Source of the DNA: Raillietiella orientalis
Lineage: Eukaryota
NCBI GenBank assembly: GCA_036172245.1
Contig: JAYWIR010000108.1
Coordinates: forward strand, 1-64,000
Direction of reading: 5' to 3'
DNA length: 64,000 nucleotides
The position numbers and the translations under genes were made by a program. The notes beneath the pieces were generated by a model. It worked only from the letters and a program-made list of their open reading frames with translations. It had not been told where the DNA came from and did no database searches. Positions 1 to 63,009 of this stretch are shown here, one piece after another. Positions within the stretch are counted from its first letter, which is position 1. Each line of letters begins with the position of its first letter.

Positions 1-1564
1 GGCCCTCGAAAAATCCCGGGGGCGGGCGGTTAAAGGGAAATGCTCGCAGAACACCCGGACGGAGGCCTTAAAAAATACCCAATTCGTAAGACTCTTGAGC
101 GTAACGCCTTTCAGGAATTCATGAAGGTGTTCCTATGCTGCTGAGAGTCGCGTTCAGTTCCCCGGCACACGACACTCCCTGGATGGAGGTCTGTTGTTGC
201 GAAACCGCATCACGAAATTCACCCGGGAATGGTCCGACAGCGTCGATGCGATCTTCCCCCGTTTGCCGGCCCGTGAACACAAGTAAGCGTCCAGGAAGAC
301 GTGGACGATGCTGCAGACCATTCTTTCACCTGCGAACAGGTTCAGCACACGCATGGCGCCGCAAAACTCGTTCATCGCGTTCTCTTGTGTTTCATGTTCA
401 CCAGTTCGCAGTCGAAGATTGAGAACTCCGGTTATCAGGTAAGCCTTTCGCACGTTCGTGTTCGCCACACAGTCGCGTTCCAGGGATTCAAGCAGCCTGG
501 TACGGTTGCTATATCCCTTTTGACCGGTATGGGCGTACACATTCGTGACAATCAGATGGATCGAGACGGAGCAGCCGAAAATCAGCTGAGCGACCCGGTC
601 GACGTCATCGAAACGCACGCCTTTCACGGCAGCGTCGATGGCTGGCTTGACGAAGAACGCGACTCCGCAGGTGTTGCGAAGGCCGCATTGCCGTTACATC
701 CTATCCCCCGCGATCGACTTGATCTCCTGGACGTCTGCCGCGAAGATCACGTGGATCTCCTGCAGCCGGGCACGTTGAGTTCACGCAAAGTGTCGGCTGT
801 ACCTCGCCTGTTACCGTCGTCGCGCACCCCGTTGACATTCCAACAGGCCGCGCGGAACCGACGGCGACTGGCGAGCCCACGTTGTACTCATGGGAAAGTG
901 GCAGTCCGGCGTCCGCCACCTACCAGGGCAAGATGCTAGGTGGAGGAGGAGGGTCAGGTGGTGAAGGCACATAATCCCCCTCCTGCATGGGTAACAGCGC
1001 GCCGAGCGGGTCACCCACAGGTGGGGTCGCGCCTACCTGTTTTCCCTTCTTAATGGAGGCGGGCTGTTCAGGGTCGGCGACTGCAGGGAGGACTTTACCT
1101 ATTTGCTCACCCTCCACCATGGGGTGGCCATTTCGACAACTTCGGAACGTTGGAATTCCTCCTTTGGGGTTCCTACGCTGGCGACGGCTTCCGTCTTCTC
1201 CTCCTTGCTGGAGGAAGGGAAGCACCTCCTGGGCTTCTGGGACTTGCGTTGCGATTTCCTAGGGGTGCCTTTGAGGAGGAGGAGCTACTTCATGCATCTA
1301 GGTCTGACTTACGTAAGGAAGGCTTCTCTGCGGGATCCGGCCTTCGTACGGCCTTGCGCGAGGGGTTCTCCCGCTCGGCCAGCGTCACCGCGAGCTCCTG
1401 TGCCGCCTCTGCGAATGCGACGTCCTCGGCTTCGAAGGGCGCGTCGCGCGGCTCACCCTGTGTGTAAACAGAAGGTTCGCAGTCGCGAGCCTCGGGCGCA
1501 GCGGAAACGGCGAGGGGAGGCTCGTCGCTCCAGGTGGCAGCCTCGGGAACGGTGATGCGTTCGA
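1..1564 (-). mobile_element. Family A L1/Tx1-like element, downstream part (ORF1 C-terminus and APE endonuclease), runs off window
   Basis: Translates to ERITVPE...AFAEAAQELAVTL (ORF1) and RFDD..NVYA..(G)xLN..SDH (degenerate endonuclease). The upstream part continues at ~7291. Confidence 0.85.
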
Positions 1565-2010
1565 TTTTCACCCGTATTTCTCCGGGTCGTTTATTGAAAA
1601 ATAAAATTTATAATGAAATTATGTATGGCTGTGGCAATGCTCCAGTCAGAAGCAAAAAATCACAAGCCTGCCAATTAACCGGTTCCTAGACCGGTATGGT
1701 TCACCAAGGCAGCAGAGGAAAAGGAAAAAACAAAAAACTAAACAAAAAAAACAAAGGGTGGGAGGGAACGGGAAGGGATCACTGATGCTGCTGGGACCGC
1801 ATCATGCCTCTCAGGATGCAGGCAAGCTCTTGTTTGATGTGAACATCCTGGTGGGGCCATCTTGACGCCTTCCTCAGGAATTGGGAGGCGCACTGGATGG
1901 CGTCCTGAACGCTTGGTCCTCCCGTCGCCGTGCTCCATGCGGCTACGATCCCACGAAGGCAGCACAAGGCTGCTATCAAGGACGCTGGCCGAAGAGCGTC
2001 GACAACGATG
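1565..2010 (-). mobile_element. Family D element 3' end (ORF2 C-terminus and 3' UTR)
   Basis: DALRPASLIAALCCLRGIV, TGATCCCTTCCC stop motif, T-rich tract, AATAAA and terminal hairpin ending GGTGAAAA at 1565. Confidence 0.85.
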
Positions 2011-16890: not shown

Positions 16891-17031
16891 CTCGAGGACT
16901 GGTACGATCTGAAAAAATCGTTCCGGGAGTTCTGCTGCCGGTTTCCCTTGCACCTGCTTCTCCGCGGCTTCAAACAGGGTGTCGCGAACAGCAGATCCTT
17001 TCTGCAGGCGCGTACCTTCTCCAAATCTCCT
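16891..17031 (+). mobile_element. Continuation of family E ORF2 after the family B insertion
   Basis: LEDWYDLKKSFREFC.RFPLH..RGFKQGVANSRSFLQAR is homologous to QDWD...GFGEGVRNERAYLQAR in the other copies. Confidence 0.75.
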
Positions 17032-17350
17032 CTGTGGAGAGAGGACGTGCTTCCCTTGCTCTCCGCCTGCGTGGCAAGGCGAGTAGTTTTTTTCTTGAGT
17101 GGCTTGTGCGTGCACATCGTCGATGTCCAATGCCAGCGTTCCCAGAGGACATCTAGATGGAAGTAGGCCTGAGGGAGGCTTGTTCGTCCCCACAGCCTAC
17201 TGGATCAGGGACATCCACCCCGAAATTGTCCCCAGCGACGCCGAGGTCATGGAGCGCCATGGTGGCCGCGCCTAGAGTGGAAGCCATGGCCGAGATGGAA
17301 GCCTACAAGAAAGCGGGGTATAAACCCTTGCTAGTCTACAAGGTAGGCAA
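17032..17350 (+). mobile_element. Family A 5' fragment (5' UTR and ORF1 start)
   Basis: Closely matches 24249 onward (CTGTGGAGAG.GGACGTGC); WSAMVAAP..EAMAEMEAYKK. Confidence 0.85.
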
Positions 17351-17905
17351 GGTAGGCTTTTGGAGACGGCCGGACCAGGCTTCTGCTGCGCAGAAGTGCC
17401 CCAACGGTACGCCGAGGTACTTGAAGCATTTGCCCGTGGGGATCCCCTAGCGGATCCAGTCCGACCGTCCAGCCCACGCAGAACCAACGAAGACTATGCA
17501 CGACTTCGCCCAGTTCACCTCCAGGCCCGTCCCGCGGCGCAGCAACTCGAAGAAGTCCTCAAGTGCACTCGCCGGGGTGGACCCGGGAAGCAGCAGCAGA
17601 AGATCGTCTGCATAGGCCGACACGGCAGGCGTGCCGGCACACGAGCTCGGCAGTGTTGCCAGAGTTACCCTGTATGCCCTCAGCACCAACTCGAAGTAGA
17701 TACTGAAGAGCAAGGGGATCAGGCTGTCACCCTGCCGGATACCGCGGCGGACTGCCACGCCGTACACGTGCCGGCCGCTGAAACCAATATTAATTGACAC
17801 GATGCGCCAGCAGGAGCGCAGGTAGGACTGGAGCACAGCCGGGAAACCCATGCGTTCCAGGAGCTCCAAAAGGAGTTCCTGGTCGACGCAGCCGAATGCT
17901 CTGCG
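17351..17905 (-). mobile_element. Family C reverse transcriptase fragment (downstream half of a host split at KAFD)
   Basis: AFGCVDQELL...GIRQGDSL...YADD...KYLG. Confidence 0.88.
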
Positions 17906-17999
17906 TACTCCAGGGTGGACGTGTTTTCTCGGTGCTCCTCGTGCCAAGAAGTCTCTTCCGGTGCAAGCGTCGTGTGGTTCGGTGGTCGATCAGGCAGCG

Positions 18000-19600
18000 A
18001 TGCCTGACGCGACCACCAGGGATGGCCAGGGGGCAGCGGCAACACCGCCCCCAGAGGCGATGGCGAGACAGGGGGCGGCGGCAACGTCGCCCCCGGGAGG
18101 CCATTGGGTGGGGGCATCCGCCCCCACAGAATGGGTCCCCGCTGCGACGCGGGCGTGGAGCGCCGTTGTGTCGGCGCCATCGCCTGCAGCCGCTGCGGAA
18201 TTGTCGGCCTATGTAGAAGAGGGGTACAACCCCTCATTCTTCTAGAAGGTAAACAATTTATATTCTTTAGAGAGCGCGCGCGCCTTCTGGAAAGGCATGC
18301 GCGCTCTCGATGTGAAAGAGGAGGAGCTCAGCGCTATGATCATCCGCAGCGGAGGTCACTACGTTGAGGACATCTGCAAACAAGCAGAGCTGGCCCAACG
18401 ACTGCTTAAAACCCCCGTGGTGATGGGGACGCGCAGGCTCCTTCCTATTACGGCGGACCGCAGCATGGTGGTCAACCTGTTAGGTGTTACCGCGCGGATG
18501 CGCAAAGAACAGGTGCGCGCCGCGTTGGAGGAATACGAAACGGTCCACGCGCAGTGGACGGAAGTTAGTCCTTCCGAGGACTACACGGGGCTTCAACACG
18601 GCCTCACTGCTGCGCGCCTGACCGTTCGGGAGGGCTGCACTCTTCCCCACAAACTTGTGGTTGAAGGCGAAACCGTCGACCTCTGGTATGTAGGGAAGTC
18701 GAAATACTGTAGCTTCTCCAATACATCGGGCCACCCCGAAAAGAGGTGTCTCAATGTGCAGTGCCAAGTATGCGGCACAATGGGCCACACGAGGGAGGTG
18801 TGCCCAAAAGCAGCAGTGCGGGTGGTTTCCAAAAGAAACCTCAAAAAACTCGCCCGGCTTCTGCAGAAAAGGCTGGTGGCGAAAGCTGCCGCGAAGGCTG
18901 TACCACCTGCGCCCAAGACTCAGGCCGCACACGAGACCCAGGCGACCAACGCCGAAAAAGTTGAGGGAGCCGGCCAGGAGACTGAGTGGCAGGTGGCAAC
19001 GGCCAAAAAATCAAAGAACGAGAAGAGGATGGAAAATAAAATTGCCTACGCGTTTTCGATGTTGCCGAACGCTGCCGGAAAGAACTCGCCGCTACCGACG
19101 ACCTCCCCTCTGTTGAAACAGTCAACAGCGAGGGAAGCGAGCCGGCGGCGGTGTCCGTCATCGACAGCACTATCGATGACGTAGCCTGCGCGCGAGCCGC
19201 GGAGGAGCTGGCAGCCTCGTTGCAGCCGGAACCCTACAAGGCTGGCAAGAAGGCCGTAAGGCGTCCGGCCTCCCCTCAGGAGTCCCCCACTTCCGAACCC
19301 TAGGTGGAGGCCGGAAGCGCAGATTCCGTTTCTACCGCACCGCGCAAGAAGGCTGGACGTAAGTCCACAAAGCCAAGGAAGCTCGTCTCCCCCGTCGAAG
19401 GAGAAGAGATGGCTTCCGCAAGCGAGGGTGCCATGAGCGTGGGAAACTCTCGGGACCCGTCGCCCGAGAGACTCCCACGCACGGACACGGAAGGGATGGA
19501 GGGGATGGAGGCCGAACAGGTGCCTCAGGTGCCTGAGAAGGCCGAAACCTCCATGGACATCCCGCCCGCCTCGCAAGAGGAGGGCTCCCCCACACCTTAA
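18000..19600 (+). pseudogene. Family D ORF1 (RRM-like region and 2 CCHC knuckles), interrupted by stops and a deletion
   Basis: VDLWYVGK..YC.F....GH....C and CQVCGTMGHTREVC. Confidence 0.85.
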
Positions 19601-19614
19601 TCTTCCCAGCAGTA

Positions 19615-22600
19615 ATGCCGGGAATCTCCTCCCGCCGTCGACTGCGCATCGCCGTTTGGAACGTGAACGGCATGACAGACGCCGGCAGGAGACGAGACAT
19701 GGCCGCCCTTCTAAAGTCCTACGACCTTGCGCTGCTGCAGGAGATCCACGTGATCTCTGCAGAAGAAGCGCAAGAGATCGAACGGATCTCCGGAGGGCGG
19801 CCATGGTACAGGTGTGGGAGAGCGAAAAGTTGCGGTGTCGCCTACCTCCTACGGCCAGCCGTCGAGGCCGCAGTTCAAGGCGTGCGGTTCCACGATGACG
19901 GTCGTGTCGGCCAGCTGACTCTCAGGTGGTCCGACTCGATCGATGTGATCGTCACGAACGTGTACGCACCGAGCGGCAAGTTCCTGATGAACAGGAGGGT
20001 GAGGAAAGAGCTTTCCTTTGCCCTCCGGCGAGACTGGCTCACCGAAGCAGGCGTGCGGAATGCCCATCTGGTTGCAGGCGATTTCAACGTTTGCCTAATA
20101 CCAGATGGGCGGAATCCCGAGGTTGACCTGGTCAACGAGGTGTGCATGGCGGTGCACACCTTTATTTGTTGGCCAGTGCACCGGGGATAGAAGACAGCAT
20201 TGACCACGTGTTTCTTGACGAGCACCTGTGCCCTCGCGTGGGCAGGCGCCGCAATTTACCGTGCGAGCTGTTCGACCATCGCCCGCTAGTCCTCGAGATC
20301 CATCCGCGCGACAGGGGCCCCCCCTCGTCAGCATCGCGTCTCTCAGGGGACTGGCTGAAGCTCCCGGACGCGGCGGAACATCTCCGAACGTTCATACGGA
20401 GCTTCAGGCTGCGGACACTCCAGGATTGGGACCGCTTCAAGCGGTCGGTCCAGGAGTTCTCCGACCAGTTCCCCCTGCACCGCCTATCTACGGATTTGGG
20501 ACCGGGGTCCGCGACGAACGAGCGTTCCTGCAGGCCCGTCGTTACGCCAGGACCCCGGACATCCGCAGGCTGGCGGAATACAAAGCGGGAGCAGAGAGGC
20601 AAGCCTGGCAGTCCGGATCGGCCAGCGTACTGGACGATCAAGGCCAGGAGCACTCGCCACCTGCCCAAATCCGCGGCCTACTGCGGAGTTACTACTCCTC
20701 CCTGTATGCCAGGGCACCTCCGCTGGGGAACGTCTCATGACTCCTGCTTTTGGAAGGCGCTCCAGCGATCGAAGAGGAGCAGAGAAAGACCTTCGACGAG
20801 CCTTTCACGATGGACGTAGTCCTCTCGTCCATCAAAAAGCTCAAAAGGCGAAAGGCTCCAGGGGAGGACGGCCTGCCCGCGGAGTTTAATCAAACTTTCG
20901 CGGCTGAGCTTCCTCTTCTGGTACAGGAACTCACCTTGCTGATACGCGAAACAGGTGACGCTCCCGCCTCGTTTCGTTCGGCAAAGGTGCGGCTCCTCCC
21001 TAAGGGAGGAGATCTGAGGAGCATGAACAACTGGCGTCCCATCACAATAGTGAATGCGGACGCCAAGTTGGTAGCCAAGATGTGGGCAGAGCGTCTGGGA
21101 CGGGTTGCCAACATCTTCATCAGCACGGAACAGACATATGCTGTTCCCGGTCGAAGCATGGAGGCGAACCTGTTCCACGCTTCCACCTGGCTAGAGCTCC
21201 AACATGAAAGGAGCTTGATGCGCAGCCGGTATTCCGGTGCCTGCACCGGCAAGGGGTTGGATGGTCGGGTAGGGGAGGGAGCCCTAACGGTTGCAATCGA
21301 CTTGCGAAAAGCATTCGGTTGCGTCGACCAGAATCTCCTTCTGGAGCTTCTGAAACGCTTCAGCTTCCCGGCCTCATTAGTGGCCTATCTGCGCTCCTGC
21401 TGGCGCGACGCGCTCATCAATGTTACTTTCAGCGGGCAGACCGTGCACGGCGTGATGGTGCGGCGTGGGATCCGGCAGGGAGAAATCCTGAGCCCCTTGC
21501 TCTTCAGTACCTACTTTGAGGTGGTACTGAGAGCGTACAGGAAAACTCTGGCGCACCTGCCGCACGACTGTGCCGGTACTTCGGCCGTTTCAGCATACGC
21601 GGACGACCTTATGCTGCTGCTCCCTATGTCCACCCTGGCTGCGGCGGTCGAGGAGTTCTTCCACCTGCTGCATCGGGGAACCGGACTTACGGTGAAAACG
21701 GCGAAGTCGTCCGTGATGACAGTTGGTGCGGCGTGGGCAGGGCAGCAGGACTAAGTCCGTTTGGGGATCCCCACGGTGGGGCACTTCAAGTACCTTGGTG
21801 TGCCGTTGGGGGACTACTCCCCTGCGGAAGCGTGGTCCGACTGCCTCCAAAAAGTAGAGACGGCTATCGGCCCGTTCCGTGGCGGCAGGTTTTTCCTGCC
21901 TGAATGGGCCACGGTTTGGAACACGTTCGCGGCTCCTATCCTCCGCTCCCTGCTTTTTGTTTGCCCTCTACAGAGAGGATCAAAAAGCGGACAATGGACC
22001 TTCTATGTATCACCCTTTGGGGCAACGGGAGTGCCCGAGTTTGCTTAATAGACTTGTGCGCTCCTCGTCGGGATGGTGGTCTGGGCCTCCTGACGCTGGA
22101 GCGGCTGGAGCTTCAGCTCCAGTTCCGCTTGTCGGCACTCGTTCCAGAGTTGTGGTGCACCTGTTGGTGCGTCCCTACACGTCTCCTACTCCAGCAACCC
22201 ACCGGCAAGACGGGACTTACGTCGTTACTTGCACGCCGTCGCGGCGTCAAAGGATGCGGACTCCAGTTACGGAGGGTGGCTGCGCTGTATCGGAAAAACT
22301 AAATATTGCTCACCTGTCGCCCGTTGAACGCTAGCGCCTGGTTGCAGGAAACCGTTCGAACGTAAGGACAGTTCGGCATGCAACGCTCTCAGCAGGAACG
22401 AAGGTTCCTGTTTGGGGGTTACAGAAGTTGCACGCTCCGCGAGACCCTGGAGGATCCAAAGAAGAGAGCGTGGGCAGGAAGAACCCCCTCGCTGCTGCGC
22501 TGTTCTCCCTGATGGAAGATCTGGACAGCGATGTTGCGGCGAAGTGGGTGGTTACAGTAGCAATCTCCGGAAAGGAGAAGAAGATAGGGGAGTGTAAGAC

Positions 22601-23191
22601 GGGCCAGTTAACAGAAGCTGCCACCCCGAGTACGCCTCCCAATGAACTTCTGCGCTGATGCGCGCTGTTCGATGTTCCCATTGAACATCTGAAGTGGCCA
22701 CCGGTGCTCATGAACACTTCCGCCCTCCCCTTAAAATGGCAGGAGTCGGCTCTATTGTTGCAGCACTGGGGACTCTCCTGCAACGTCCGCCGACACCATT
22801 GGACCTGGGGAGCGGTGGACCCCAAATGCGTCAGGTGTGGGGAACGGGACTCCCTCCCCCACCTGCTAGTGGATTGTGTTGTCCTTCGGCCCCTTTGGAT
22901 TTGCTTACTGCGGCCGTCGGAATCCCCTGCGGCAACCCCGGTGACGCACTGAAAGCCCCCTTCGTTGCCGACGCCCTCCGGCCAGCGGCCTCGTTAGCAG
23001 CTTTGTGCTGCCTACGCGGGATCGTCACCGCTTAGAGCAAGGCTACGGGAGGACATCGCAACCAGGGTGCCTTCCAGCCAGCCTCCCAGTTCCTTAGGAG
23101 GGCGTTCCGATGGCACCATCTGGATCCAGGAATACAGAAGGAGCTTGCTGGCATCCTGCAAAGGATGCAACGGCACCACCAGCAACTGTGA
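19615..23191 (+). pseudogene. Family D ORF2 (APE endonuclease, RT, zinc finger), frameshifted
   Basis: WNVNG, LQE, NVYAP, GDFN, IDH; PGEDGLP, WRPIT, DLRKAF, GIRQG, YADD, KYLG; CVRC...HLLVDC. Confidence 0.9.
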
Positions 23192-23409
23192 TCCCTTTCC
23201 TTACCCTCCCAACTTTTCTTTTCTTTTTTGTTTGGTTTTTTGTTTTTCCCCCTTCCTTCTGCTGTTGTGGTGGACCGTACCGTTCTGCGAACCGGTGACC
23301 CGTCAGGCTCTGTGTTTCTCCGTGCGTAACTGGAGCAATAGTCCAGCCACCGCACGTCTTTGTAAAACTTTATTCTACAATAAACGCCCCGGCGAAATAC
23401 GGGTGAAAA

Positions 23410-24248
23410 TCGAATGCTTTGCGCAAATCGACCGCGACTGCAAAGGCTTCCGTCGAGTCCCTCCCACGCTCTATCCGATGTTCCTGGTTAGAGGGGAGCG
23501 CGAGGCACTTTTGACCATCCTGAGCAACGCTTTGTCGCAACTGCCACCATGAGCTGGCGAGGAGCAGGTTGGCCTCCATGGTTCGTCCGGGAACAGCGTA
23601 GGTCTGCTCGGGACTCACCACGAAAGCGGCCACCCGCCCCAAACGCTAGGCCCACAACTTGGCATACAACTTAGCGTCCGTATTCACTACTGTGATGGGA
23701 CGGCAGCTGCCAATGTTGCGTAGGTCTCCTGACTTCGGCAGGAGACGTACTTTTGCTGATCGAAACGAGGCGGGAACTTCGCCGTGTTCGCGGATCAGCG
23801 TACCTAGCTTGAGCACCAGGGGGGCCAGCTCTGTCGCGAAGTGTTTGTAAAATTCCGCGGACAGGCAGTCCTCCCCTGGTGCCTTCCTGTTCTTCAGCCT
23901 GTTGATGGCGGAGACGACCTCCACCAGCGTGAACGGTTGTGCCAACCTGCAACGATCCTCCTCCTTGAGCGCGGGGAGACCATCCGCCAGCAGGCGCTGC
24001 GCGAAATGGCGCTGCTGTGTTAGTGGCGCGTACAAGGACGACTAGAACACTCGCACGATGCGGCTTACCTGAGCTGGGCTGCAGCGCTCTTAGTCCTGAT
24101 GGTCCAGCAAGCAGACCAAGCCCGACTGCAAGGCCTGTCTCTCAGCCTCAGCCTCGAATTCTGAAAGGCGACGAACGTCGGGACGCATGCAATAACGGCG
24201 GGCCTTAAAATATGCCCGCTCGTTCCTGACTCCTTCGCCGAATCCCCG
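23410..24248 (-). mobile_element. Family C ORF2 linker and RT N-terminal fragment
   Basis: RGFGEGVRNERAY...APGED.L..RPIT...AVAVDLRKAF. Confidence 0.88.
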
Positions 24249-24347
24249 CTGTGGAGAGCGGACGTGCTTTTCCTGCGCTCCGCCTGCGTGGCATAGCGAG
24301 TGTTTTTTCTTATTAAGTGATTTGTGCGTGCACATCGTCGGTGTCCG

Positions 24348-44892: not shown

Positions 44893-44905
44893 AAGGGATT
44901 CGGCG

Positions 44906-45798
44906 ATGCAACCACGATACGCTGAAACGTTTATTAAAAAACATTTCAACGGGCAATACAGAACGTGGAACAAGGCCCCACTGACGGCCACGGAATGCCG
45001 GAACTGCCGGGACACCGGGACGCAGCCCGGTGTGGCTCTTCTCCGCAGTGGAGGGGGATGGGGGAAAAAACAAAAATAAACTAAAAGAGAAAAACATACC
45101 ACAAAAAAAAAAAAGTTTGGAGGGCCGGGAAGAGATCACAGAAAACTGCTGGGAGCGCCCATCCTTTGCAGGATGCCTTCTAGTTCCATTTTCTGCTTTC
45201 TTAGGTGGGGCCATCGGGTAGCTCTCTGCAGAAAGCGAGAAGCATACTCGATGACGTCCCTCACGATGCAGTCTTCATCTTCGTTATCACTCCAGGCCGC
45301 CACGATACCACGAATTCAGCAAAGTGCTGCCAGGGCTGCGGCTGGACTGAGGGCGTCCCGCACGAAGACAAGACTGAAGATACATTCAACATTGCCACCA
45401 TCCGTTATCCGCAGGGCCGTTTTCAGACGATCCCAAAGAATCTGGACGGCATGGCATTCAACTAAGAGGTATGGGAGCGTCTCCCGCTCCCCACACCTGG
45501 CACACGCAGGATTTACTCTTCACCGCGTCCAGTGGAAGCGGCGCGCGTTGCAGGGTAGACCCCAATGCATCCACAGAAGCGCCGATTCTTGCCACTTCAG
45601 GGGGAGAATCCTGGATCCAATTAGAACCGGGGGCCACTTCAGGTCATCCAATCGAATGCCGAGCAGCTCGTTCCATCTTCTTAATCCACGAGGCTGGAGA
45701 CTAAGGGTCGTTGCATCTGTCAACTCTCCCATGGTCCAGCCGCTCATCATGTTCTCTCTGCCTGCGATACGGCAGCAGGCTTGCCACCTTGGCTTCCG
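44906..45798 (-). mobile_element. A-like element 3' end (ORF2 C-terminus and 3' UTR)
   Basis: RKPRWQ...KWQESALL..WGLPCNARR; AATAAA and a decayed terminal hairpin. Confidence 0.82.
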
Positions 45799-48700
45799 GG
45801 CCGAAGGAAAAAACAATCCACTAGCAGGTGGGTGAGGGAATCCCGTTCCCCACACCTGACGCAATTGGGGTCCACCGTTCCCCAGGTCCAGTGGTGACGG
45901 CGGGCGTTGCAGGGAAGTCCACAGTGCTGCAACAGAAGAGCCGACTCCTGCCATTTCAAGGGGAGGGCGGAAGTGTTCATGAGCACCGGTGGCCACTTCA
46001 GATGTTCAATGGGAACATCGAGCAGCGCGCCCCAGCGCAGAAGTCCACTAGGAGACGTACTCGGGGTCGCAGCGTCTGTTATCTGGGCCGTCTTCCACTT
46101 TCCTATCTTCATCTCCTTTCCGGAGATTGTTACTGTAACCACCCACTTCGCCGCAACATCGCTGTCCAGATCTTCCATTAAGGAGAACAGCGCAGCAGCG
46201 AGGGGGGTTCTTCCTGCCCACGCTCTCTTCGTTGGATCCTAAAGGATCTCGCGGAGCGTGCAACTTCTGTAACCCCCAAACAGGAACCTTCGCTCCTGTT
46301 GAGAGAGTTGCATGATGAACTGTCCCCACGTTCCAACGATTTCCTGCAACCAGGCACTACCGTTCAACGGGCGACCGGTTAGTAATCCTGGGATTTTCCG
46401 ATACAGCGCAGCCACCCTCCGTAGCTGGAGTCCGCATCGGTTGATGCAGCGACGGAGTGCAAGAAACGACGTGAGTCCCGTCTTGCCATTGGCTTGCTGG
46501 GAAAGGAGAGGTGCAGGGACGCACCAACAAGTGCACCACAACTCTGGAACGAGTGCCGACAAGCGGAACTGGAGCTGAAGCTCTAGCCGCTCCAACGTCA
46601 GGAGGCCCAGACCACCATTCCGACGAGCAGCGCACAAGTCCTTTAAGCGGACTCGGGCCCTCCCGTTGCTTCAAAAGGCGATACGGAGGAGGTCCTTCGT
46701 CCGCTTTTTGATCCTCTCTATGGGGACGCAAACAAAAAGCAGGGAACGGAGGAGAGAAGCCGCGAACATGTTGCAAACCGCGGCCCGTTCAGGCAGGAAA
46801 AACGTGCCGCCTCGGAACGGGCCGATCGCCGTCTCTACTTTTTGGAGGCAGCTGGACCACGCTTCCGCAGGGGAGTAGTCCCTTAACGGCACACCAAGGT
46901 ATTTAAAGTACCTCACCGTGGGGATCCTCAAACGGACCCAGTACTGCTGCCCTGCCCACGCCGCACCAACTGGCATCACGGACGACTTCGCCCTGTTCAC
47001 CGTAAGTCCGGTTCCCCGATGCAGCAGTTCGAAGAAATCGACCGCCGCAGCCGGGGTGGACATAGGGAAAAGCAGCACAAGGTCGTCCGCGTATGCTGAA
47101 ACGGCCGGCGTACCGGCACAGTCGTGCGTCAGGTGCGCCAGAGTTCCCCTGTACGCACTCAGTACCAACTCCAAGTAGGTACTGAAGAGCAAGGGGCTCA
47201 GGCTGTCTCCCTGCCGGATCCCATGCCTCACTGGCACGCCGTGTACGGTCTGCCCGCTGAAAGTAGCATTGATGAGCGCGTCGCGTCAGCAGGAGCGCAG
47301 ATAGGCCCTTAATGATGTCGGGAAGCTTAAGCGTTTCAGAAGCTCCAGAAGGAGATTCTGGTCGACGCAATCGAATGCTTTTCGCAAGTCGATTGCGAGC
47401 GCAAGGGCTCCCTCCCTCACCCGACCATCCAACCCCTTGCCGGCGCACGCACCGGAATTCCGGCTGCGCACCAAGCTCCTTCCATGTTGGAGCTCTAGCC
47501 AGGTGGAAGCGTGGAACAGTTCGCCTCCATGCTTAGCCCGGAAGCAGCATATGTCTGTTCCGGGCTGATGAAGATGTTGGCAACCCGTCCCAGACGCTCT
47601 GCCCAAACCTCAGCCAGCAACCTGGGGTCCGCATTCACTATTGTGATGGGACGCCAGTTGTTCATGCTCCTCAGATCTCCTCCCTTAGGGAGTAGCCGCA
47701 CCTTTGCCGAACGAAACGAGGCGGGAACGTCACCCTTTTTGCGTATCAGCAAGGTGAGTTGCTGTACCAGGGGGGTAACCTCAGCCGCGAAAGTTCGATG
47801 AAACTCCGCGGGCAGGCCGTCCTCCCCTATAGACTCTCGCCTCTTGAGCTTTCCGATGGCCGAGAGGATCTCGTCCATCGTGAAAGGCTCGTCGAGGGTC
47901 TTTCTCTTCTCCTCCCCGATCGCTGGAGCGCCTTCCGGAAGCAGGAGTCGTGAGACGCTCCTCTCCGGAGGTGCCCTGGCATACAGGGAGGAGTAGTAAC
48001 TCCGCAGCAGGCCGCGGATTCGGGCAGATGCCGAGTGCTCCTGGCCCTCATCGTCCAGTAAGCTGGCCGATCCGGACTTCCAGGCTTGCCTTTCGGCTCC
48101 CGCTTTGTATTCCGCCAGCCTGCGGTTGTCGGAGGTCCTGGCGTAACGACGGGCCTGCAGGTAGGCTCGTTCGTTACGGACTTCAGTCCCAAAACCCGTA
48201 GGTAGGCGGTGCAGAGGGAACTGGTCGCCGAACTCCTGGTCCGACCGCTTGAAGCGGTCCCAATCTCGAAGTGTCCGCTGCCAGAAGCTCCGTATGAACG
48301 TGCGGATATGTTCCGCCGCGTCCGGGAGCTTCAGCCAGTCCCCTGGGAGACGCCACGCTGACGAGGAGGGGCCCCTGTCGCGCGGATGGATCTCGTGGAC
48401 TAGCGGGCGATAGTCGGACAGCTCGCACGGTAACCAGCCGCGCCTGCCAACGCGAGGGCACAGGTGCACGTCAAGAAACACTTGGTCAATGCTGTCTTCC
48501 ATCCCCGGTGCAATGGCCAACAAATTACAGGTGTGCACCACCATGAACACCTCGTTGACCAGGTCAAGCTCGGGATTCTGCCCATCTGGTTTCAGGCGAA
48601 CGTTGAAATCGCCTGCAACCAGATGGGCTTTCCGCACACCTGCTTCGGTCAGCCAGTCTCGCCGGAGGGCAAGGAAAAACTGTTTCCTCGCCCTCCTGTT

Positions 48701-50830
48701 CATCAGATCCTTGCCGCTCGGTGCGTACACGTTCGTCACAATCACATCGATCGAGTCGGACCACCTGAGAGTCAGCTGGCCGACACGACCGTGATCGTCG
48801 AACCGCACGCCCCGAGCCGCTGCCTCGACGGCTGGCCGAAGCAGGTAGGCGACACCGCAACTTTTCGCTCTCCCACACCTGTACCACAGCCGCCCTCCGG
48901 AGATCCGTTCGATCTCTTGCACTTGTTCTGCAGAGATCACGTGGATCTCCTGCAGCAGCGCAAGGTCGCTGGACTCCAGAAGGGCGGATATGTCTTGTCT
49001 CCTGCCGGCGTCTGTCATGCCGTTCACGTTCCAAACGGCGATGCGCAGACGACGGCGGGAGGAGATTCCCGGCATTACTGCTGGGAAGATTAAGGTGTGG
49101 GGGAGCCCGCCTCTTGCGAGCGGGGCGGGATGTCCATTGGGGTATCGGCCTTCTCAGGCACCTGAGGCACCTTTTCGACCTCCACCCCCTCCATCCCCTC
49201 CGTGTCCGTGCGTGGGAGTCTCTCGGGCGACGAATCCCGAGAGTTTTCCACGCTCATGGCACCCTCGCTTGCGGAAGTTATCTCTTCCCCTTCGACGGGG
49301 GAGACGAGCTTCCTTGGCTTTGTTGACTTACGTCCAGCCTTCTTGCGCGGTGCCGTGGAAACAAAGTCTGCGTTTCCGACCTCCACCTCGGAATCAGTAG
49401 TGGGGGACTCCTGAGGGGAGGCCGGACGCCTTAGGCCTTCTTGCTAGCCTTGAGGATTCTGGCTGCAACGAAGCTGCCAGCTCCTCCGCGGCTCGCGCGA
49501 CGGCTACGTCATCGATGGTGGTGTCGATGACGGACACCGCCGCAGTCTCGCTCCGCTCGCTATTGACAGTGTCATCAAACAAGTGTTCGTCGGTAGCGGC
49601 GAGTTCTTTTTCGCAGCGGTCGGGAATACGCTCGACGACAACGCTGCATTCGTTAATTTGCTCGCTTGCCTGCTGGTTTTTTTGGCGGTACGCGAGCTTT
49701 TTCTCCATCCTCCTCTCCTTCTTTGATTTTTTGGCCGTAGCCACCTGCCACCCAGGCTCCTGGCTTGTTCCCTCGATTTGTTGGGCGTTGTTCGCGGGGG
49801 TCTCGGGTGCGGCCTGGGCCTTGAGCGCGGGTGGTACAGCCTTCGCGGCAGCTTTCGCCGCCAGCCTTTTCTGCAGAAGCCGATCACGTTTTTGAAGGTT
49901 TCTCTTAAAAACCACCCGCACTGCTGCTTTAGGGCACACCTCCATCGTTTGTCCCATGGCTCGGCATACTTGGCACTGCACGTTGGGACACCTCTTTTTG
50001 AGGTGGCCCGACGTATTGGAGAAGCCACAGTATTTCGGCTTCCGCACATACCAGAGGTCGGCGGTTTCGCCTTCGACCACCAGTTTGTGGGGAAGAGTGC
50101 AGCCCTCCCGGAGGGTCACGCGTGCAGCAGGGAGGCCGTGTTGCAGCCCCGTGTAGTCCTTGAAAGAACTAACTTTTGTCCACTGCGCGTGGACCGTTCC
50201 GAACTGTTTCGAAGCGGCGCGAACCTGTTTTTTGCGCATTCGCGCGGTTACGCCTAACAGGTGGACCATCATGCTGCGTTCCGCCGTAGTGGGGAGGTGC
50301 CTGCGCGTCCCCATCACAACGGGGGTTTTTAGCAGTCGTTGGGCCAGCTCTGCATGTTTGCAGATGACCTCAACGTACTGACCCCCGCTGCATTTGGTCA
50401 TAGCGCTAAGCTCCTCCTCTATCACATCGATAGCGCGCATGCCCTTCGAAAAGGCGCGCGCGCTCTCTAAAGAATATAAATTGCCTACCTTGTAAAACAA
50501 TGAGGGTTTGTACCCCTCCTCTACATAGGCCGACAATTCCGCCGCGGCTGCAGGCGATGGCGCCGACACCACGGCGCTCCACGCCCGCGCTGCAGCGGGG
50601 ACCGATTCTGTGGGTTGGATGCCCCCAGCTCCATCGCCTCTGCAGGCGACGGTGCCGCCGCCCCCTGGCTCTCCATCGCCTCTGGGGGCGGCGCTGCTGC
50701 TGCCCCGTGGCCATCCCTGATGGTCGCGTCAGGCATCGCTGCCTGATCGACCACCGAACCACACGACGCCAGCACTATTGGAGACTTCTTGGCACGAGGA
50801 AGACCGAGAAAACACGTCCGCTCTAGAGCG
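45799..50830 (-). mobile_element. Near full-length family D element (3' end replaced by an A-like end)
   Basis: GGACGTG at 50819; ORF1 ~50736-49090; ORF2 from 49075 (526 aa still open) with endonuclease and RT motifs. Confidence 0.9.
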
Positions 50831-50844
50831 CACAAAGCATTCGA
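50831..50844. repeat. Isolated target-site copy CACAAAGCATTCGA between two tandem family D ends
   Basis: This 14-mer equals the RT H-K-A-F-D coding sequence and the family D TSD; it is flanked by a 5' end and a 3' end. Confidence 0.85.
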
Positions 50845-52952
50845 TTTTCACCCGGATTTCTCCGGGTAGTTTATTAAAAAAATAAAGTTTGTAAACAAAT
50901 TATCAATGGCTGTGGCAATGCTCCAGCCAGAAGCTAGGGACCACGGTGCCTGCCAATTCACCGGTTTCTAGACCGGTACGTTCCACCAAGGCAGCAGCGG
51001 AATGGGGAAAAACACAAAAAAAAAAACTCAACAAAAAAAAAAAAAAGGGTTGGAGGGAACGGGAAGGGATCACTGTTGCTGCTGGGGCCGCTGCATTCCT
51101 TTCAGGATGCTGGCAAGCTCTGGTTTGTTGTGAACATCCAGGTGGGGCCATCGCGACGCCCTCCTCAGGAATTCGGAGGAGCACTGGATGGCTTCCTGAT
51201 CGCTAGGTCGTCCCGTCGCCGTGCTCCAGGCGGCGACGATCCCACGAAGGCAGCACAAGGCTGCTATCGAGGACGCTGGCCGCAGGGCGTCGGCAACGAT
51301 GAAGGCTTTTAGTGCGTCCCTGGGGTTGCTGCAAGGGATACCGATGGCCGCGGCAAAGCGGAACGAAAGGGTCCGAAGGGCAACACAATCCACTAGGAGG
51401 TGGGGGAGATACTCCCGTTCCCCGCACCTTACACAATTGGGATCAACCGCTCCCCAGGTCCAGTGGTGTCGACGGGCGTTGCAGGGGAGTCCCCAGTGCT
51501 GCAACAGGAATACCAACTCTTGCCATTTTAGGGGGAGGATGGAAGTGTTCATCACAATCGGGAGCCACTTCAGATGTTCAATCGGAACATCCAGCAGCGC
51601 TCTCCAGCGCAGAAGTCCATTAGGAGGCGTACTCGGGGTCAAGCATCAGTTAGCTGGCCCGTCTTCCACTCTCTCTGCTTCTTGTCCTTGCCAGAGATAT
51701 TTATTGTAACCTCTCACTTCGCCGCAACATCGCTGTCCTGATGTTCCACTAAGGAGTCGAGCGCAGAAGCGAGGGGGGTTCTTCCTGACCACGCTCTCTT
51801 CTTAGGATACACCAGGAGCGTGCAACATCTGTAACACCCAAACAGGAACCTTCGTACCTGATGGGAGGGTTGCATGCCGAACTGTGTCCACGTACGAACG
51901 GTTTTCTGCAACCAGGCACTACCGTTCGCGGGGAGACATTTGATCCATCCTTGACTTTTCCTTGCCAGCGCAGCCACCCTCCGTAGCTGAAGCCCACATT
52001 GGTTGATGCGGCTTCGATGGAGTGCAAGAAACGACGTAAGTCCCGTCTTACCGGTAGCTTGCTGAAGAGGGAGACGTGCAGGGACGCACCAACAGGTGCA
52101 CCACAACTCTGGAACGAGTGCCGACAATCGGAACAGGAGCTGAAGCTCCAGCCGCTCCAGCGTCAGGAGGACCAGACCACCATCCCGACGAGGAGCGCAC
52201 AAGTCCTTTAAGCCAACTCGGGCCCTCTTGTTGCTTCAAAAGGCTATACGGAGGAGGTCCTTTGTCCGCTTTTTAATTCTCTCTATGAGGGAGCAAACAA
52301 AAAGCAGGGGGCGGAGGAGAGGAGAGGCGAAAGTGTTCCAAACCACGGCCCGTTCAGGCAGGAAAAAGCAGCCGACTCGGAACGGGCCGATCGCCGTCTC
52401 TGCTTTTTGGAGGCAACCGGACCACGCTTCCGCAGGGGAGTAGTCCCCCAACGGCAAACCAAGGTACTTGAAGTACCTCACCATGGGGATCCCCAAACGG
52501 ACCCAGTCCTGCTGCCCTGCCCACGTCGCTCCAACTGGCAACACTGACGACTTCGCCCTGTTAACCTGTAATCCGGCCCCACGCATAAGCAGGTCGAACA
52601 AATCTCCGATTGCCTTCGCCGGGGTGGACATAGGTAAGAGGAGCGGAAGATCGTCGGCATACGCCTCAACGGCTGGCGTACCGAGGCACGAGCTCGGCAA
52701 GGGGGCCAAACTCACCCTGTACGCTCTCAGCACCACCTCAGCGTAGGTGCTAAAAAACAGGGGGCTAAGGCTGTCGCCCTACCTTATGCCCCGCCGCACC
52801 GGCACGCCATACAACTTTTGTCCACTGAAAGTAATTGAGATTATCGCGTTCCGCCAGCAAGAGCGCAGGTAGGTAATCAAGGAGAGTAGGAAGCCCATGC
52901 GATCCAGGAGCTCCAAGAGGAGTTCCTGGTCAACACAGTCGAATGCCTTGTT
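50845..52952 (-). mobile_element. Chimeric element: A-type RT core joined to a D-type C-terminus and 3' UTR, cut at KAFD
   Basis: YADD region resembles the 27589 ORF; the C-terminus resembles 6558-7290 and 1565-2010; hairpin ACCCGGA-GAAA-TCCGGGT at 50850-50867. Confidence 0.8.
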
Positions 52953-53546
52953 CGCTCTAGGGTGGACGTGTTTTCTCGGTGCTCCTTGTGCCAGGAACTC
53001 TCCCCCAGTGCAAGCGTCGTGTGGTTCGGTGGTCGATCAGGCAGCGATGCCTGACGCGACCATCAGGGATGGCCACGGGGCAGCAGCAGCGCCGCCCCCA
53101 GAGGCGATGGAGAGCCAGGGGGCGGCGGCACCGTCGCCTGCAGAGGCGATGGAGCTGGGGGCATCCAACCCACAGAATCGGTCCCCGCTGCAGCGCGGTC
53201 GTGGAGCGCCGTTGTGTCGGCGCCATCGCCTGCAGTCGCGGCGGAATTGTCGGCCTATGTAGAGGAGGGTACAACCCCTCATTGTTCTACAAGGTAGGCA
53301 ATTTATAATCTTTAGAGAGCGCGCGCGCCTTCTCGAAGGGCATGCGCGCTCTCGATGTGAAAGAGGAGGAGCCCAGCGCTATGACCATCCGCAGCGGGGG
53401 TCAGTACTTTGAGGTCATCTGCAAACATGCAGAGCTGGCCCAACGACTGCTTAAAACCCCCGTAGTGATAAGGATGCGCAGGCTCCTCCGCACTACGGCG
53501 GACCGCAGCATGGTGGTCCACCTGTTAGGCGTGACCGCGCGAATGC
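52953..53546 (+). mobile_element. Family D 5' fragment inserted antisense at the KAFD site
   Basis: Follows TCGAATGCCTTGTT; GGACGTG at 52964; ORF1 begins MPDAT. Confidence 0.87.
52964..52971 (+). promoter_or_regulatory. DPE-like internal promoter motif GGACGTGT (representative copy)
   Basis: The same motif occurs near the 5' end of essentially every element and matches the DPE consensus RGWYV. Function is inferred. Confidence 0.55.
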
Positions 53547-56483
53547 GGACCGATCGCCAACGCTGCTTTTTGGAGACGGTCGGACCAGGCTTCTGCTGCG
53601 CAGAAGTCCCCCAACGGTACGCCGAGGTACTTGAAGCACCTGCCCGTGGGGATCCCCAAGCGGATCCAGTCCGACCGTCCAGCCCACGCCGAACCGACGA
53701 AGACCATGGACGAATTCGCCCTGTTCACCTCCAGGCCCGTCCCGCGGCGCAGCAACTCGAAGAAGTCCTCGAGTGCACTCGCCGGGGTGGACCCGGGAAG
53801 CAGCAGCAGAAGATCGTCTGCATAGGCCGACACGGCTGGCGTGCCGGCACACGAGCTCGGCAGGGTTGCCAGAGTTACCCTGTATGCCCTCAGCACCAAC
53901 TCGAAGTAGATGCTGAAGAGCAAGGGGCTCAGGCTGTCACCCTGCCGGATGCCGCGGCGTACGGGCACGCCGTACACGTGCCGGCCGCTGAAACCGATAT
54001 TGATTGACGCGTTGCGCCAGCAGGAGCGCAGGTAAAATTGAAGCACGGCAGGGAAACCCATGCGTTCCAGGAGCTCCAGAAGGAGATCCTGGTCGACGCA
54101 GTCGAATGCTTTGTGCAAATCGACCGCGACGGCAAAGGCTCCCGCCGAGTCCATCCCACCCTCTGCCCGATCTTCTTGGTCAGAGGGGGGCGCGTGGCTT
54201 CCTTGACCGTCCTGTGCAACGCGTTGTCGCAACTGCCACAATGAGCTGGCGAGGAGCAGGTTGGCATCCACGGTTCGTCCGGGAACAGCATAGGTCTGCT
54301 CGGGACTCACCACGGAAGCGGCCACCCGCCCCAAACGCTCAGTTCACAACTTGGCATACAACTTTGCGTCCGCATTCACTACTGTGATGGGTCGCCAGTT
54401 GCCAATGTTGCGTAAGTCTCCTGACTTCGGCAGGAGACGTACTTTAGCTGACCGGAACGAGGCGGGAACTTCGCCGTGTTCGCGGATCAGCGCACTTAAC
54501 CTGAGCACCAGGGGGGCCAGGTCTGGCGCGAAGCGATGGTAAAACTCCGCGGGCAGGCCGTCCTCCCCTGGTGCCTTCCTTCTCTTGAGCCTGTTGATGG
54601 CGGAGATGTTCTCCGCCATCGTGAACGGTTCCACCAATCTGGAACGGTCCTCCTCCTTGAGCGCGAGAGCGCCATCCGGCAGCAGGCGCTGCGCAAAATG
54701 GCGCTCAGGTGTTAGTGGCGCGTACAAGGAGGAATAAAACTCCCGCACGATGCGGCTTACCTGGGCTGGGCTGGAGCGTTCTTGGCCCTGATGATCCAGC
54801 AGGCAGGCCGAGCCTGACTGCCAGGCCTGCCTCTCCGCCTCAGCCTTGAATTCAGCCAGGCGACGGACGTCGGGTCGCCGGGAATAACGGCGCGCCTGGA
54901 GGTACGCCCGCTCGTTCCTGACACCCTCACCGAAGCCCGGCGGAAGACGTTCCAGCGGAAACTGGTCGCAAAACTCACGGACTGAGCACTTCATTTCGTC
55001 CCAGTCCGCGAGCGTCTGAAGCTGGAATCCTCGCAGGAAACATCGTAGATGTTCCGCCGCTCCTGCGAGGCGCAACCAATCCCCTGGCAGGCGCCATGTT
55101 TTCAGGGGAGCGCCCTTATTGCGCGGATGTAGCTCGAGCACGAGCCGTGGTTGGTCGGACAGCTCTGCCGGGAGCGTTCCTCGAGTTCCCACCCGCGTGC
55201 ACAGGTGGTTGTCGAGGAACATGTGGTCGATGTTCCGATCTCTCCCGGCATCGCCGGCCAACAAGTTGCGCGCATGCATGGCTGCGCACAACTCGTTGAA
55301 CAGCTGTGCTCGTCCGCTGGGCGCACCTGCCAGCAGGCGGAGATTGAAATCGCCCGCAATGAGGTGCGCCCTTCGCACGCCTGCTTCGGCCAACCAGTCT
55401 CGCCGCAAGGTTTCGAAGAACGCAGTGCGTTCCTCGGCCCTATGGCTGCTCACCGGAGCGTACAGGTTCGTGACTACGAGGTCAATCGAGTCGCACCCCT
55501 TGAACACAAGCTGCTCAACTCGACCATCCCCGTCGAACCGTGCACTGCGCAGTGAGTTGTCGACGGTTGGCTTTAGCAGAAAGGCCACTCCGCAGGAGTT
55601 GTCCGTTCCGTTCCTCCACAGTAGCCGCCCTCCCGCGATTCTTTCCATTTCCTGGACATCTCCCGGTCGGAGAACGTGCGTCTCTTGCAGGAGCACCAGG
55701 TCGAAATCTCGCAGTATGGCGGCTACATCTCGCCTCTTTCCGTCGTCGCGCAACCCGTTGACATTCCAACAGGTGATGCGCAAGCGGCGGCAGAAGGCGA
55801 GCCCACGCATTGATGCGTTTATTGTGGGGTGGAGGCGGCCTCCTCCCTTGCGGGAGGCGGCTTGTTGGCGGCCGTGACGACGGTCGGCTGCTCACACAGG
55901 AGCACGTCGTCAACAGCGACTTCCATGGATCTGGCTTCCGAGACACGGATCGGAGAGGGGTCGCGTGGCGCGACGCACATTGCCTCCTCCTCCGTGCCCG
56001 AAGACATGGCATCCTCCACCTGCGGAGGGGCGACCCGTCTCGGTCAACCGGTCTTCTTGCCAGCCTTCCTCTTCGGCACGGCTGCGGAAGTAGAACAACC
56101 GGCTTCGGTTTCGGACTCGGAATTTTCCGGGCCCTTCACCGTTGCCGGTCGTCTCCAGGCCTTCTTCTCGGCCTTGGCAGGCTGCCGTAACATGGCTGCC
56201 AGCTCTTCCGCGGCCTGTGCGAAGGTCGCGTCCGTTATGCGCGCCGCCTCCTCGCTTTCCGCACCGACGCTTTGCGCAGGCGCGACAGGGGCGGCTTCAT
56301 CGATCGGCGCGCAGACGTCCTTCGCTGGCAATGCCGGAACGGCATTGTCGTCAGCTGATGGTGACGTCACTGCGGGCACGACCTGCTCAGGATCGACGGT
56401 ATCGATCGCCTTTTCCGTTACTTTCTTTACGGCTCTGGCGATCGAGACGCGTTCGATCTTCACCGTACAAGCGCGGACGACCG
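53547..56483 (-). mobile_element. Family C element, middle part (ORF1 tail, endonuclease, RT)
   Basis: ORFs 54344-55810 and 53525-54334 with endonuclease and RT motifs; cut in ORF1 at VVRAC. Confidence 0.9.
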
Positions 56484-58245: not shown

Positions 58246-58253
58246 ATACACCA

Positions 58254-63001: not shown

Positions 63002-63009
63002 GCAGCGGG

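Follow-up and report, generated by a model that had tools for sequence, protein, structure and literature searches.

The 64-kb window, i.e. the whole stretch of DNA analysed here, consists of nested LINE copies and nothing but LINE sequence (GC 59%). One family within it, family D, had been proposed in the initial annotation to target the coding sequence of a conserved RT motif of other LINEs. The locus raises the question if family D recognizes a defined target and, if so, whether this target is the motif as such or a shorter word contained in its codons. The full-length element and its host comprise the following features, with the element delimited by Pfam, tblastn and end mapping:

17906..23409, + strand: full-length family D element, 5,504 bp
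17892..17905, + strand: left TSD copy CCGAATGCTCTGCG, antisense of the KAFD codons of a C-type host RT
23410..23423, + strand: right TSD copy TCGAATGCTTTGCG; the opposite strand continues the host and reads VAVDLRKAFD
17357..17905, − strand: 3' part of the D host, a C-type RT from the KAFD site to ~aa 262, 92.4% identical to element k
23410..24248, − strand: 5' part of the D host, the C-terminus of a C-type APE and the RT N-terminus up to KAFD
21307..21318, − strand: D's own copy of the site, CCGAATGCTTTT

The full copy contains ORF1, an APE endonuclease, an RT and a 3' hairpin that terminates in GTGAAAA without poly(A); its 5' end reads CGCTCTAGRGYGGACGTGTTTTCTCGG, and Pfam matches were obtained for Exo_endo_phos (E 2.1e-11) and RVT_1 (E 6.1e-23). 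ORF2 is broken by at least seven frame changes, the tblastn pieces lying in differing frames, so that this copy must be regarded as dead. The element is bordered by a 14-bp duplication whose two copies are identical at 12 of 14 bases. As the left and the right flank both match element k, the latter with 83-92% identity, they represent one and the same host.

The other D-type copies and target sites of the window are:

52939..52952, + strand: target TCGAATGCCTTGTT, bordering the start of D3 on its 5' side; the host is a mosaic and J-like in this RT part
52953..53545, + strand: D3, a D copy represented by its first ~590 bp and truncated at ~53545 by an unrelated junction
50845..52952, − strand: mosaic element (earlier 'A-type'), host of D3, present from its KAFD site down to the 3' end
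50831..50844, − strand: target TCGAATGCTTTGTG shared by D2, whose 5' end adjoins it, and the mosaic element, whose D-like 3' end lies on its other side
45798..50830, − strand: D2, a D copy with its 5' end that extends to D position 4987 and shares 88.8% identity with D
1553..2008, − strand: element b, a D-type 3' part (1565-2008) with the 3' flank TCGAACGCATCA (1553-1564)
54102..54113, + strand: perfect 12-mer target, unoccupied, in the RT of element C2
59950..59961, − strand: perfect 12-mer target, unoccupied, in the RT of element k

D3 shares 90.3% identity with D and 93.7% with D2; the mutual identity among the D copies ranges from 88.6 to 93.7%, and all of them are old and broken, D2 being the least broken one with ORFs of 444 and 552 aa and an APE match. 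The host of D3 is J-like in its first ~500 nt (85-89% identity to j) and D-like in the remainder (79-89% to D). The evidence on the D type comes from a single 64-kb window with four target sites and about five events.

Target sequences are present at all four places where they had been proposed (17892-17905, 23410-23423, 52939-52952 and 50831-50844). The last of these had been taken to stand alone, which has to be corrected: on the minus strand a D-like 3' end (to 50845, ...CCGGGTGAAAA), that of the mosaic element, precedes the target and the 5' end of D2 (from 50830, CGCTCTAGAGCGGACG...) follows it. Since the same 14 bases are bordered by element ends on both sides, a D-like 3' end and the 5' end of a D copy, two insertions at one site are indicated, and the correction strengthens the case for a defined target. 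Tandem TE dimers are ascribed to insertion-site preference by McGurk and Barbash (bioRxiv 10.1101/158386).

Mapping of the element ends gave a consistent picture on both sides and bore out the proposed site specificity of family D within the window. All three D-family 5' ends adjoin TCGAATGCYTTGYK, each located exactly 14 bases past one common nick position. These three ends are also the three exact matches of GGACGTGTTTTCTCGG in the window; a fourth match with two mismatches belongs to a J-family element at a different site. The three 3' ends of D type, those of D, the mosaic element and element b, are mutually 73-87% identical over their last 444-600 nt, and all are followed by TCGAAYGC. When CGGGTGAAAA was searched with at most one mismatch, six of the seven matches were element ends with a hairpin, and TCGAAYGC is not next to the other three hairpin ends (f, h and k).

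On the opposite strand, the RT copies of the window read VDL[HRL]-K-A-F-[D/E/G] at the target place in all 13 alignable cases, split copies included. The target therefore corresponds to the KAFD codons of RT motif A read in antisense, which confirms that it encodes an RT motif; in the solved R2Bm protein the aligned segment is 'LDFAKAFD'. At the occupied RT sites motif A reads VDL[HR]KAFD, and these sites lie in two different host lineages. That such a target would be hard to mutate away, as suggested earlier, holds in part; the third codon positions of the site do vary among the copies (TCGAA[T/C]GC[T/C]TT[G/A/T]). Position 12 of the site is T in D's own copy and in D2 (47371-47382) and G in the three occupied RT sites.

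We also counted how often the word occurs irrespective of insertion. The exact 12-mer TCGAATGCYTTG is found five times in the window versus 0.01 times expected from shuffles, and two of the five perfect 12-mers carry no insertion. Its 8-base core TCGAAYGC is present at 20 of 128,000 strand positions, and 16 of these 20 places are unoccupied. Occupancy amounts to 3/11 at RT places and 1/9 elsewhere, i.e. RT sites are not clearly in excess over other core sites, and the statement that family D targets an RT motif may thus only mean that it targets a word which the motif encodes. The one occupied core site elsewhere is that of element b, whose last 444 nt are 87% identical to the mosaic element and 73% to D. 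Its flank is the ORF1 of a J-family element, which it entered in the same (sense) orientation at a site that is not homologous to the RT sites and has only the 8-base core in common with them. Element b is thus an off-target event with the 8-base core of the D target, and it suggests that the D type reads a short DNA word rather than 'an RT gene'. By an arithmetic estimate, the chance of four independent sites adjoining this core is of the order of 1e-15.

The D type is not the only lineage with a fixed site in this nest. Sister lineages hit two positions in the endonuclease gene and one in ORF1: the F type inserts at the 'DW' codons and the J type at the 'PxGFG' codons of the endonuclease, and the C type in ORF1, including an insertion into its own family, while the D type uses the 'KAFD' codons of RT motif A. 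Across the lineages the 3' ends consist of the hairpin and GTGAAAA or GTGGMAA without an A run. Since GTGAAAA is common to sister lineages with other fixed sites, the tail cannot carry the specificity.

Mosaic elements and rearranged flanks are present in the nest, and a flanking repeat alone is therefore no proof of a single insertion event. We compared the host flanks (550 bp) of the two RT-embedded D copies with the copies themselves and found 73.0% identity for the flanks versus 90.3% for the D copies. The host of D shares 92.4% identity with the C-type element k, whereas that of D3 is J-like and matches k at only 74.3%. As the hosts are far more diverged than the inserts, the insertions are independent, in agreement with the two host families postulated initially. 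These values also bear on the possibility that one or two original insertions were copied via segmental duplication, unequal crossing-over or gene conversion, which would make the junctions non-independent. Recombination does occur in the nest, as seen from the mosaic at 50845-52952, the two-host flanks of element j and three head-to-tail junctions. Copying, however, does not account for the flank identities and the different host lineages, nor for the remaining sites, the third being bordered by element ends and the fourth lying in the ORF1 of another family, so that four different contexts would have to be produced; we consider this explanation very improbable.

Two further explanations do without a protein that reads a specific word. 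The endonuclease might have a weak preference for a short, loosely read nick motif, like the TTTT/A of human L1, and hot spots might then merely be apparent in a region made almost wholly of LINEs. In a window that is all LINE any insertion must hit a LINE, and most core words are indeed unoccupied; yet each LINE offers ~11,000 combinations of position and orientation, against which three insertions at the same base in the same orientation, a fourth at the same 8-mer and the 14-base offset shared by the 5' junctions make loose preference the least probable of the explanations considered. Alternatively, integration might be guided by homology, with the LINE RNA pairing with LINE DNA in an R-loop and a rather unspecific endonuclease nicking the displaced sense strand of the host, in which case antisense orientation and location within LINEs would be due to RNA-DNA homology. 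This would fit the finding that every host is related to its inserted element and that all clear insertions at homologous ORF2/ORF1 sites (D, D3, f, g, h, both j junctions and k) are antisense to the host. Homology alone, however, does not explain why each lineage has its own nick position, exact to the base, why element b lies in sense in an ORF1 site that lacks homology but has the 8-base core, or why a J-type 5' end at 17030 lies in sense adjoining a look-alike of the J word, and we thus regard guidance by homology as unlikely.

With a probability of roughly 75%, we favour the reading that family D, together with the close lineage sharing its 3' end, is a sequence-specific, APE-type, L1-like non-LTR retrotransposon using target-primed reverse transcription for its integration. 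What the window itself shows is where the D-type copies lie and how they are oriented, that the target is duplicated, that the events are independent, and which domains are encoded. In the proposed mechanism an intact D-type element would encode ORF1 followed by an ORF2 whose product combines an APE endonuclease, an RT and a zinc-binding tail, and would end in the hairpin and GTGAAAA. The ORF2 protein would nick the sense strand of the host LINE within the Asp codon of K-A-F-D (5'-...AAAGCATTCGA^C...), the first nick being predicted on the host-sense strand directly past ...GCATTCGA. The freed 3' OH would then prime reverse transcription of the D RNA, and priming from the nicked host-sense strand would place D antisense to its host. 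A nick of the other strand 14 bases off would finally account for both the 14-bp duplication and the exact junction at a full-length 5' end. The word read would be short, comprising the core TCGAAYGC and extending perhaps as far as 12-14 bases. Its main reservoir would be the coding sequence of RT motif A in all related LINE lineages of this genome region, which in turn would lead D to pile up within other LINEs and to build nests. We infer that the APE domain reads the word; the order of the nicks, as well as any benefit to element or host, belongs to the model in the same way.

D, D2 and related copies agree with target-specific APE LINEs in having APE and RT in ORF2, in the same base position and orientation of independent copies within the window, and in a duplication of fixed length, seen as 14 bp on the one two-ended copy and as the 14-base offset at two other 5' junctions. 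Pfam assigned APE and RT to D, APE to D2, and APE, RVT_1 and zf-RVT to related copies. Membership in the L1 group is indicated by APE, RT, a C-terminal zinc-binding region and the nearest solved relatives, which are human L1 ORF2p (linker match, E 1.1e-22) and the L1 endonuclease (APE, E 4e-7); the poly(A) tail that is typical, if not universal, for the group is absent at all element ends in the window. The RT tree covers the window copies. Named database matches were plant and vertebrate L1-like proteins with at most 35% identity, and no named Coccomyxa, Chlorella or Chlamydomonas protein was among the 89 matches. The only close database relative is P0001 (67% identity), in which motif A is uninterrupted, and a protein atlas returned generic RT and zf-RVT clusters only. 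In a metagenome scan an unspecific pattern of shared 3' ends occurred at 118 loci, none with blastn or tblastn similarity to the window, and the pattern specific for D-type 3' ends gave 0 matches in genome_contigs and 0 in viral_contigs. Sequencing run X1, with 10% of the sampled words, yielded 281 short contigs on 17800-23520 with 85-99% identity, those listed showing no loose ends at 17906 or 23409.

Among known systems, passages of Kojima and Jurka (2015, PMC4640811) list R1 (28S rDNA) and TRAS and SART (telomeric repeats) as target-specific groups, and the specificity of the R1Bm endonuclease is treated in passages of PMC1919474. Like the D type, these R1-clade APE LINEs combine an ORF2 containing APE and RT with one base position of a repeated target, a fixed orientation, a fixed short duplication and precise junctions. 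In contrast to them, the D target is neither a host multicopy gene nor a simple repeat but the stretch of related LINEs that codes for a catalytic-region motif, and the D protein is L1-like by its nearest solved relatives. The Tx1 clade, likened here by description, consists of L1-group APE LINEs with strict targets; Tx1L inserts into the DNA transposon Tx1D, others into snRNA, 5S or tRNA genes or microsatellites. The D type differs in that its target is an ORF of another LINE (and of its own group), hit antisense, and in that sister lineages each have their own site. Transposons are named among the known targets of site-specific LINEs in passages of PMC4640811. R2 shares strict site specificity and target-primed reverse transcription with the D type, and its motif A 'AKAFD' aligns with the targeted host motif, but R2 has a restriction-like endonuclease, no APE domain and a different target (28S rDNA).

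The L1-group LINEs Zepp and ZeppL of green algae resemble the window in forming clusters of nested copies, as described in passages of Craig et al., and the GC content of Zepp (61% in passages of Blanc et al. 2012, PMC3446292) is close to the 59% found here. Zepp, compared by description, and L1-1_CR have poly(A) tails, (A)n, according to Table 3 of PMC3747384, whereas the window elements end in the hairpin and GTGAAAA without poly(A). No description of a base-precise target inside ORF2 or ORF1 was found for Zepp/ZeppL in passages of the literature, and a full-text search of a limited literature collection gave no paper on a LINE targeting LINE coding motifs.

The known targets of site-specific LINEs are rDNA, telomeres, small RNA genes, microsatellites and one DNA transposon. 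The D type adds to the known kind of target-specific APE LINEs; its target itself, a word encoded by a catalytic-region motif of LINE RTs, would be new, and the same holds for sister lineages specific to further conserved words in these genes. Its behaviour helps to explain how LINEs accumulate in nests rather than striking host genes, and if the reading is true it provides a concrete, testable mechanism for the self-building of nested LINE clusters and a naturally occurring example of retrotransposons that inactivate their competitors and kin but spare host genes. The APE/RT proteins of these lineages, close relatives that differ in their defined DNA specificities, would furthermore be suited for studying the evolution of specificity. 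A merely loose genome-wide preference would leave the finding with little importance.

We lean slightly towards a wider reading, in which four or more related L1-like lineages form a guild within the nest; every one of them would be base-precise for a different conserved coding segment of LINEs from its group, and they would parasitise and kill one another and themselves, confined to self-building nests. If this is true, such nests would offer a compact genome a safe haven and possibly correspond to the centromeric LINE clusters of some algae. Simultaneous cleavage of many homologous sites may have driven the formation of mosaic elements and two-host junctions. The two flanks of element j carry the same 13-mer and come from different hosts, one C-like and one J-like, ruling out that j is a simple insertion in one host. 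For element f a diverged duplication was ruled out as the aligned host is contiguous with ~0 bp duplicated. The ends of two C-type RT fragments at ~aa 262-264 (17342 and 53546) lie ~20 bases apart, and they were dropped as a candidate for a second shared breakpoint.

We searched the window end to end on both strands, by translated and nucleotide searches, with pieces of ORF1, APE and RT derived from the window itself. The whole 64 kb (G+C content 59%) consist of nested copies of related non-LTR retrotransposons and nothing else. Complete elements are ~5.5-5.8 kb long and contain ORF1, in some with a CCHC knuckle, and ORF2 with APE endonuclease, RT and zf-RVT, followed by a 3' UTR of ~240-255 nt that closes in a conserved hairpin (CCCGG...CCGGG) and GTGAAAA or GTGGMAA. 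No poly(A) was found at the element 3' ends of the window, and the common hairpin together with such a tail suggests 3' end recognition of the stringent type. Zepp differs in this respect, as Table 3 of PMC3747384 gives it a poly(A) tail. Among solved proteins, human L1 ORF2p (E 1.1e-22) and the L1 endonuclease (E 4e-7) come nearest, and a large protein collection yielded a single close relative, P0001 (67% identity), the remaining 88 matches having at most 35% identity. The hairpin is present in all lineages (e.g. 23370-23409 and 62025-62064) as CCCGG, a loop of 5-8 bases and CCGGG, with AATAAA ahead of it and a stem that is almost invariant among element 3' ends.

The initial annotation had proposed that family D targets the sequence coding for an RT motif, and the sequences it reported at four places are all present. 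The D copies and the element that hosts one of them are:

Family D copies and mosaic host
17906-23409 (+): family D element, complete copy; its start matching the other two D 5' ends and its terminus consisting of the shared hairpin and tail
45798-50830 (-): D copy D2
52953-53545 (+): D copy D3
50845-52952 (-): mosaic element, host of D3, with its own 3' end at 50845

The complete element is flanked by CCGAATGCTCTGCG and TCGAATGCTTTGCG, which are identical in 12 of 14 bases. With 92% identity to the C-type element k on either side, the flanks represent one interrupted host. Read on the opposite strand across the insertion, this host gives ...VAVDLRKAFD / CVDQELLLELL, identifying the target as antisense to the K-A-F-D codons, which come after the catalytic Asp in RT motif A; the motif aligns to 'LDFAKAFD' of R2Bm.

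The 5' motif of D, GGACGTGTTTTCTCGG, has three exact matches in the window, at 17917 (+), 52964 (+) and 50819 (-), and a fourth with two mismatches, which is a J-family element. In 3/3 D copies TCGAATGCYTTGYK stands before the 11 bases ahead of the motif, and this constant place implies a second-strand break at one 14-base offset in all of them. Of seven matches to the tail pattern CGGGTGAAAA (up to one mismatch), six are element ends. Three are D-type 3' ends, at 23409 (D), 50845 (the mosaic element) and 1565 (b, a D-type 3' part), their last 444-600 nt being mutually 73-87% identical, and they are directly followed by TCGAATGCTTTG, TCGAATGCTTTG and TCGAACGCATCA, respectively; the other three (f, h and k) have other sequences downstream. 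The site at 50831-50844 does not stand alone, as had been stated, but is bounded on the minus strand by the 3' end of a D-like element at 50845 and, on its other side, by the 5' end of D2 at 50830. The result is a head-to-tail junction with the 14-base target between two elements, exactly what two insertions at one site would leave. For tandem TE dimers, insertion-site preference has been proposed as a mechanism (McGurk and Barbash, bioRxiv 10.1101/158386).

In the window the exact 12-mer of the target occurs five times (0.01 expected) and its core, TCGAAYGC, 20 times (5.7 expected). Over 548 aligned bases the hosts of the two RT-embedded D copies share 73.0% identity in their flanks, whereas the D copies themselves are 90.3% identical; a C-type element (92.4% identical to k) received one of them, the J-like front of the mosaic element (85-89% identical to j, 74.3% to k) the other. 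With flanks more divergent than the elements and hosts of different lineages, the junctions are not copies of one duplicated segment, bearing out the earlier claim of independent events in two different host families. As to what is read, element b (1565-2008, -) lies in ORF1 of a J-family element, oriented like its host, and adjoins TCGAACGC at a place not homologous to the RT site; element h has CTGGAGCGCATCAG in the stretch homologous to this place. We regard this site as the most telling of the four, and it points to the reading of a short DNA word. The core word is occupied at 3/11 RT sites and 1/9 sites elsewhere, which lends no support to a role for RT context as such, and the perfect 12-mers in the C-type elements C2 and k are both empty. 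All three D 5' ends in the window do lie at the target, but the element may simply be reading a word that the RT motif happens to encode. Apart from the one mis-described site the original observation is real, and its interpretation is supported within the window.

Other families in the nest also occupy fixed sites:

J-, F- and C-type insertions
24249-30025: j, J type; perfect 13-mer CGCCGAATCCCCG on both sides (24236-24248, 30026-38)
33669-39329: h, J type, same place as j in another host; flank sites 33656-33668 and 39330-44, 3' flank CCCCAAATCCCGC
~44891-44905: CGCCGAATCCCTTGG, common to a J-like 3' end (~44906) and the 5' end of J-family element m (42251-44890)
11352-16895: f, F type, antisense; host joined directly ahead of sense-strand GGACTGG ('DW') in the endonuclease gene
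42248/42249: 3' end of g, F type, antisense; same host base as f, directly ahead of GGACTGG ('DW')
56484-62064: k, C type, antisense in ORF1 of C2; perfect 12-bp duplication CGCGGACGACCG (56472-56483, 62065-62076)

The J-type site is the antisense of P-x-G-F-G codons in the endonuclease gene. Insertion of f left virtually no target duplication. C2, the host of k, belongs to k's own family (93.8% identical), and a 5' end at ~2180 (-) adjoins the same ORF1 stretch in another host. Downstream of a distant C-like 3' end (63364) stands CGGCGGTCGCGA, and a third head-to-tail junction comprises a C-like 3' UTR fragment (63017-63187, -), the 12 bases CAACCCGCTGCC (~63001-63012) and the 5' end of C2. 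At homologous sites all J-, F- and C-type insertions are antisense to their host. This unexpected pattern supports the site-specific reading of D. Exceptions exist: neither the 3' end of c (~6556) nor a J-like 5' end (8384) lies at the J word, and CAACCCGCTGCC does not fit the C word. A further exception is the J-type 5' end at 17030-17350 (+), which is 89% identical to positions 3-322 of j and breaks off after 320 bp; its 5' flank, CTCCAAATCTCCT, resembles the J word and falls within the endonuclease gene of element e, at a non-homologous place and in sense orientation. Element e (8702-9439, 10543-11351 and 16896-17029, +), which hosts f, is more distantly related, with ~31% identity to k in ORF1 and ~52% in APE.

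The flanks of j carry the same 13-mer and come from two hosts that change over precisely at the insertion: on the left (23410-24248) a C-like one with 83-92% identity to k, on the right (30026-31494) a J-like one with 75-82% identity to j, h and m and 68-72% to k. This stems either from recombination of two J elements or from a single insertion that spanned two cleaved sites, so a flanking repeat in the nest can also come from two site-specific events plus recombination, or from a bridging insertion. D, unlike j, has the same host on both sides. From KAFD onwards the mosaic element resembles j for ~500 nt (85-89% identity), then D for ~1,250 nt (83-89%) and finally b for ~350 nt (88-92%). In an RT tree of the window copies it pairs with j (support 95/98), D and D2 pairing with f and g (100/99). 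The make-up of the mosaic element shows that lineages differing in target have exchanged sequence, by recombination or gene conversion.

The D junctions are consistent with an APE-type LINE that integrates by target-primed reverse transcription: the host sense strand would be nicked after ...GCATTCGA, priming would occur on the 3' end of the D RNA, and a second nick 14 bases off would be followed by a precise, full-length 5' junction. Since lineages that use other sites carry the GTGAAAA tail too, and no copy of the target word is present in the D 3' UTR, tail-target pairing cannot set specificity. We infer that the protein sets it, most likely via the APE domain; R1, TRAS and SART achieve specificity through this domain. 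Speculatively, read-through transcripts with a downstream target could aid registration. Target-specific LINEs are well known as a class. A full-text literature search and passages on ZeppL gave no report of a LINE targeting a coding motif of LINE genes; on this ground we consider, with moderate confidence, such a target to be new within the class.

ORF2 of D has at least seven frame changes and the D copies diverge by 6-11%; all of them are old and broken. D2 stops at RT residue ~602 (45798/45813, -) and is joined to a J-like element from RT residue ~474, both on the minus strand, a break that may reflect a deletion at insertion or a later rearrangement. At position 12 of the target the three occupied RT sites have a G, whereas D (21307-21318, -) and D2 (47371-47382, +) have a T in their own copy of it (Arg codon CGA); the T could be a synonymous change sparing D from itself or chance (n = 2).
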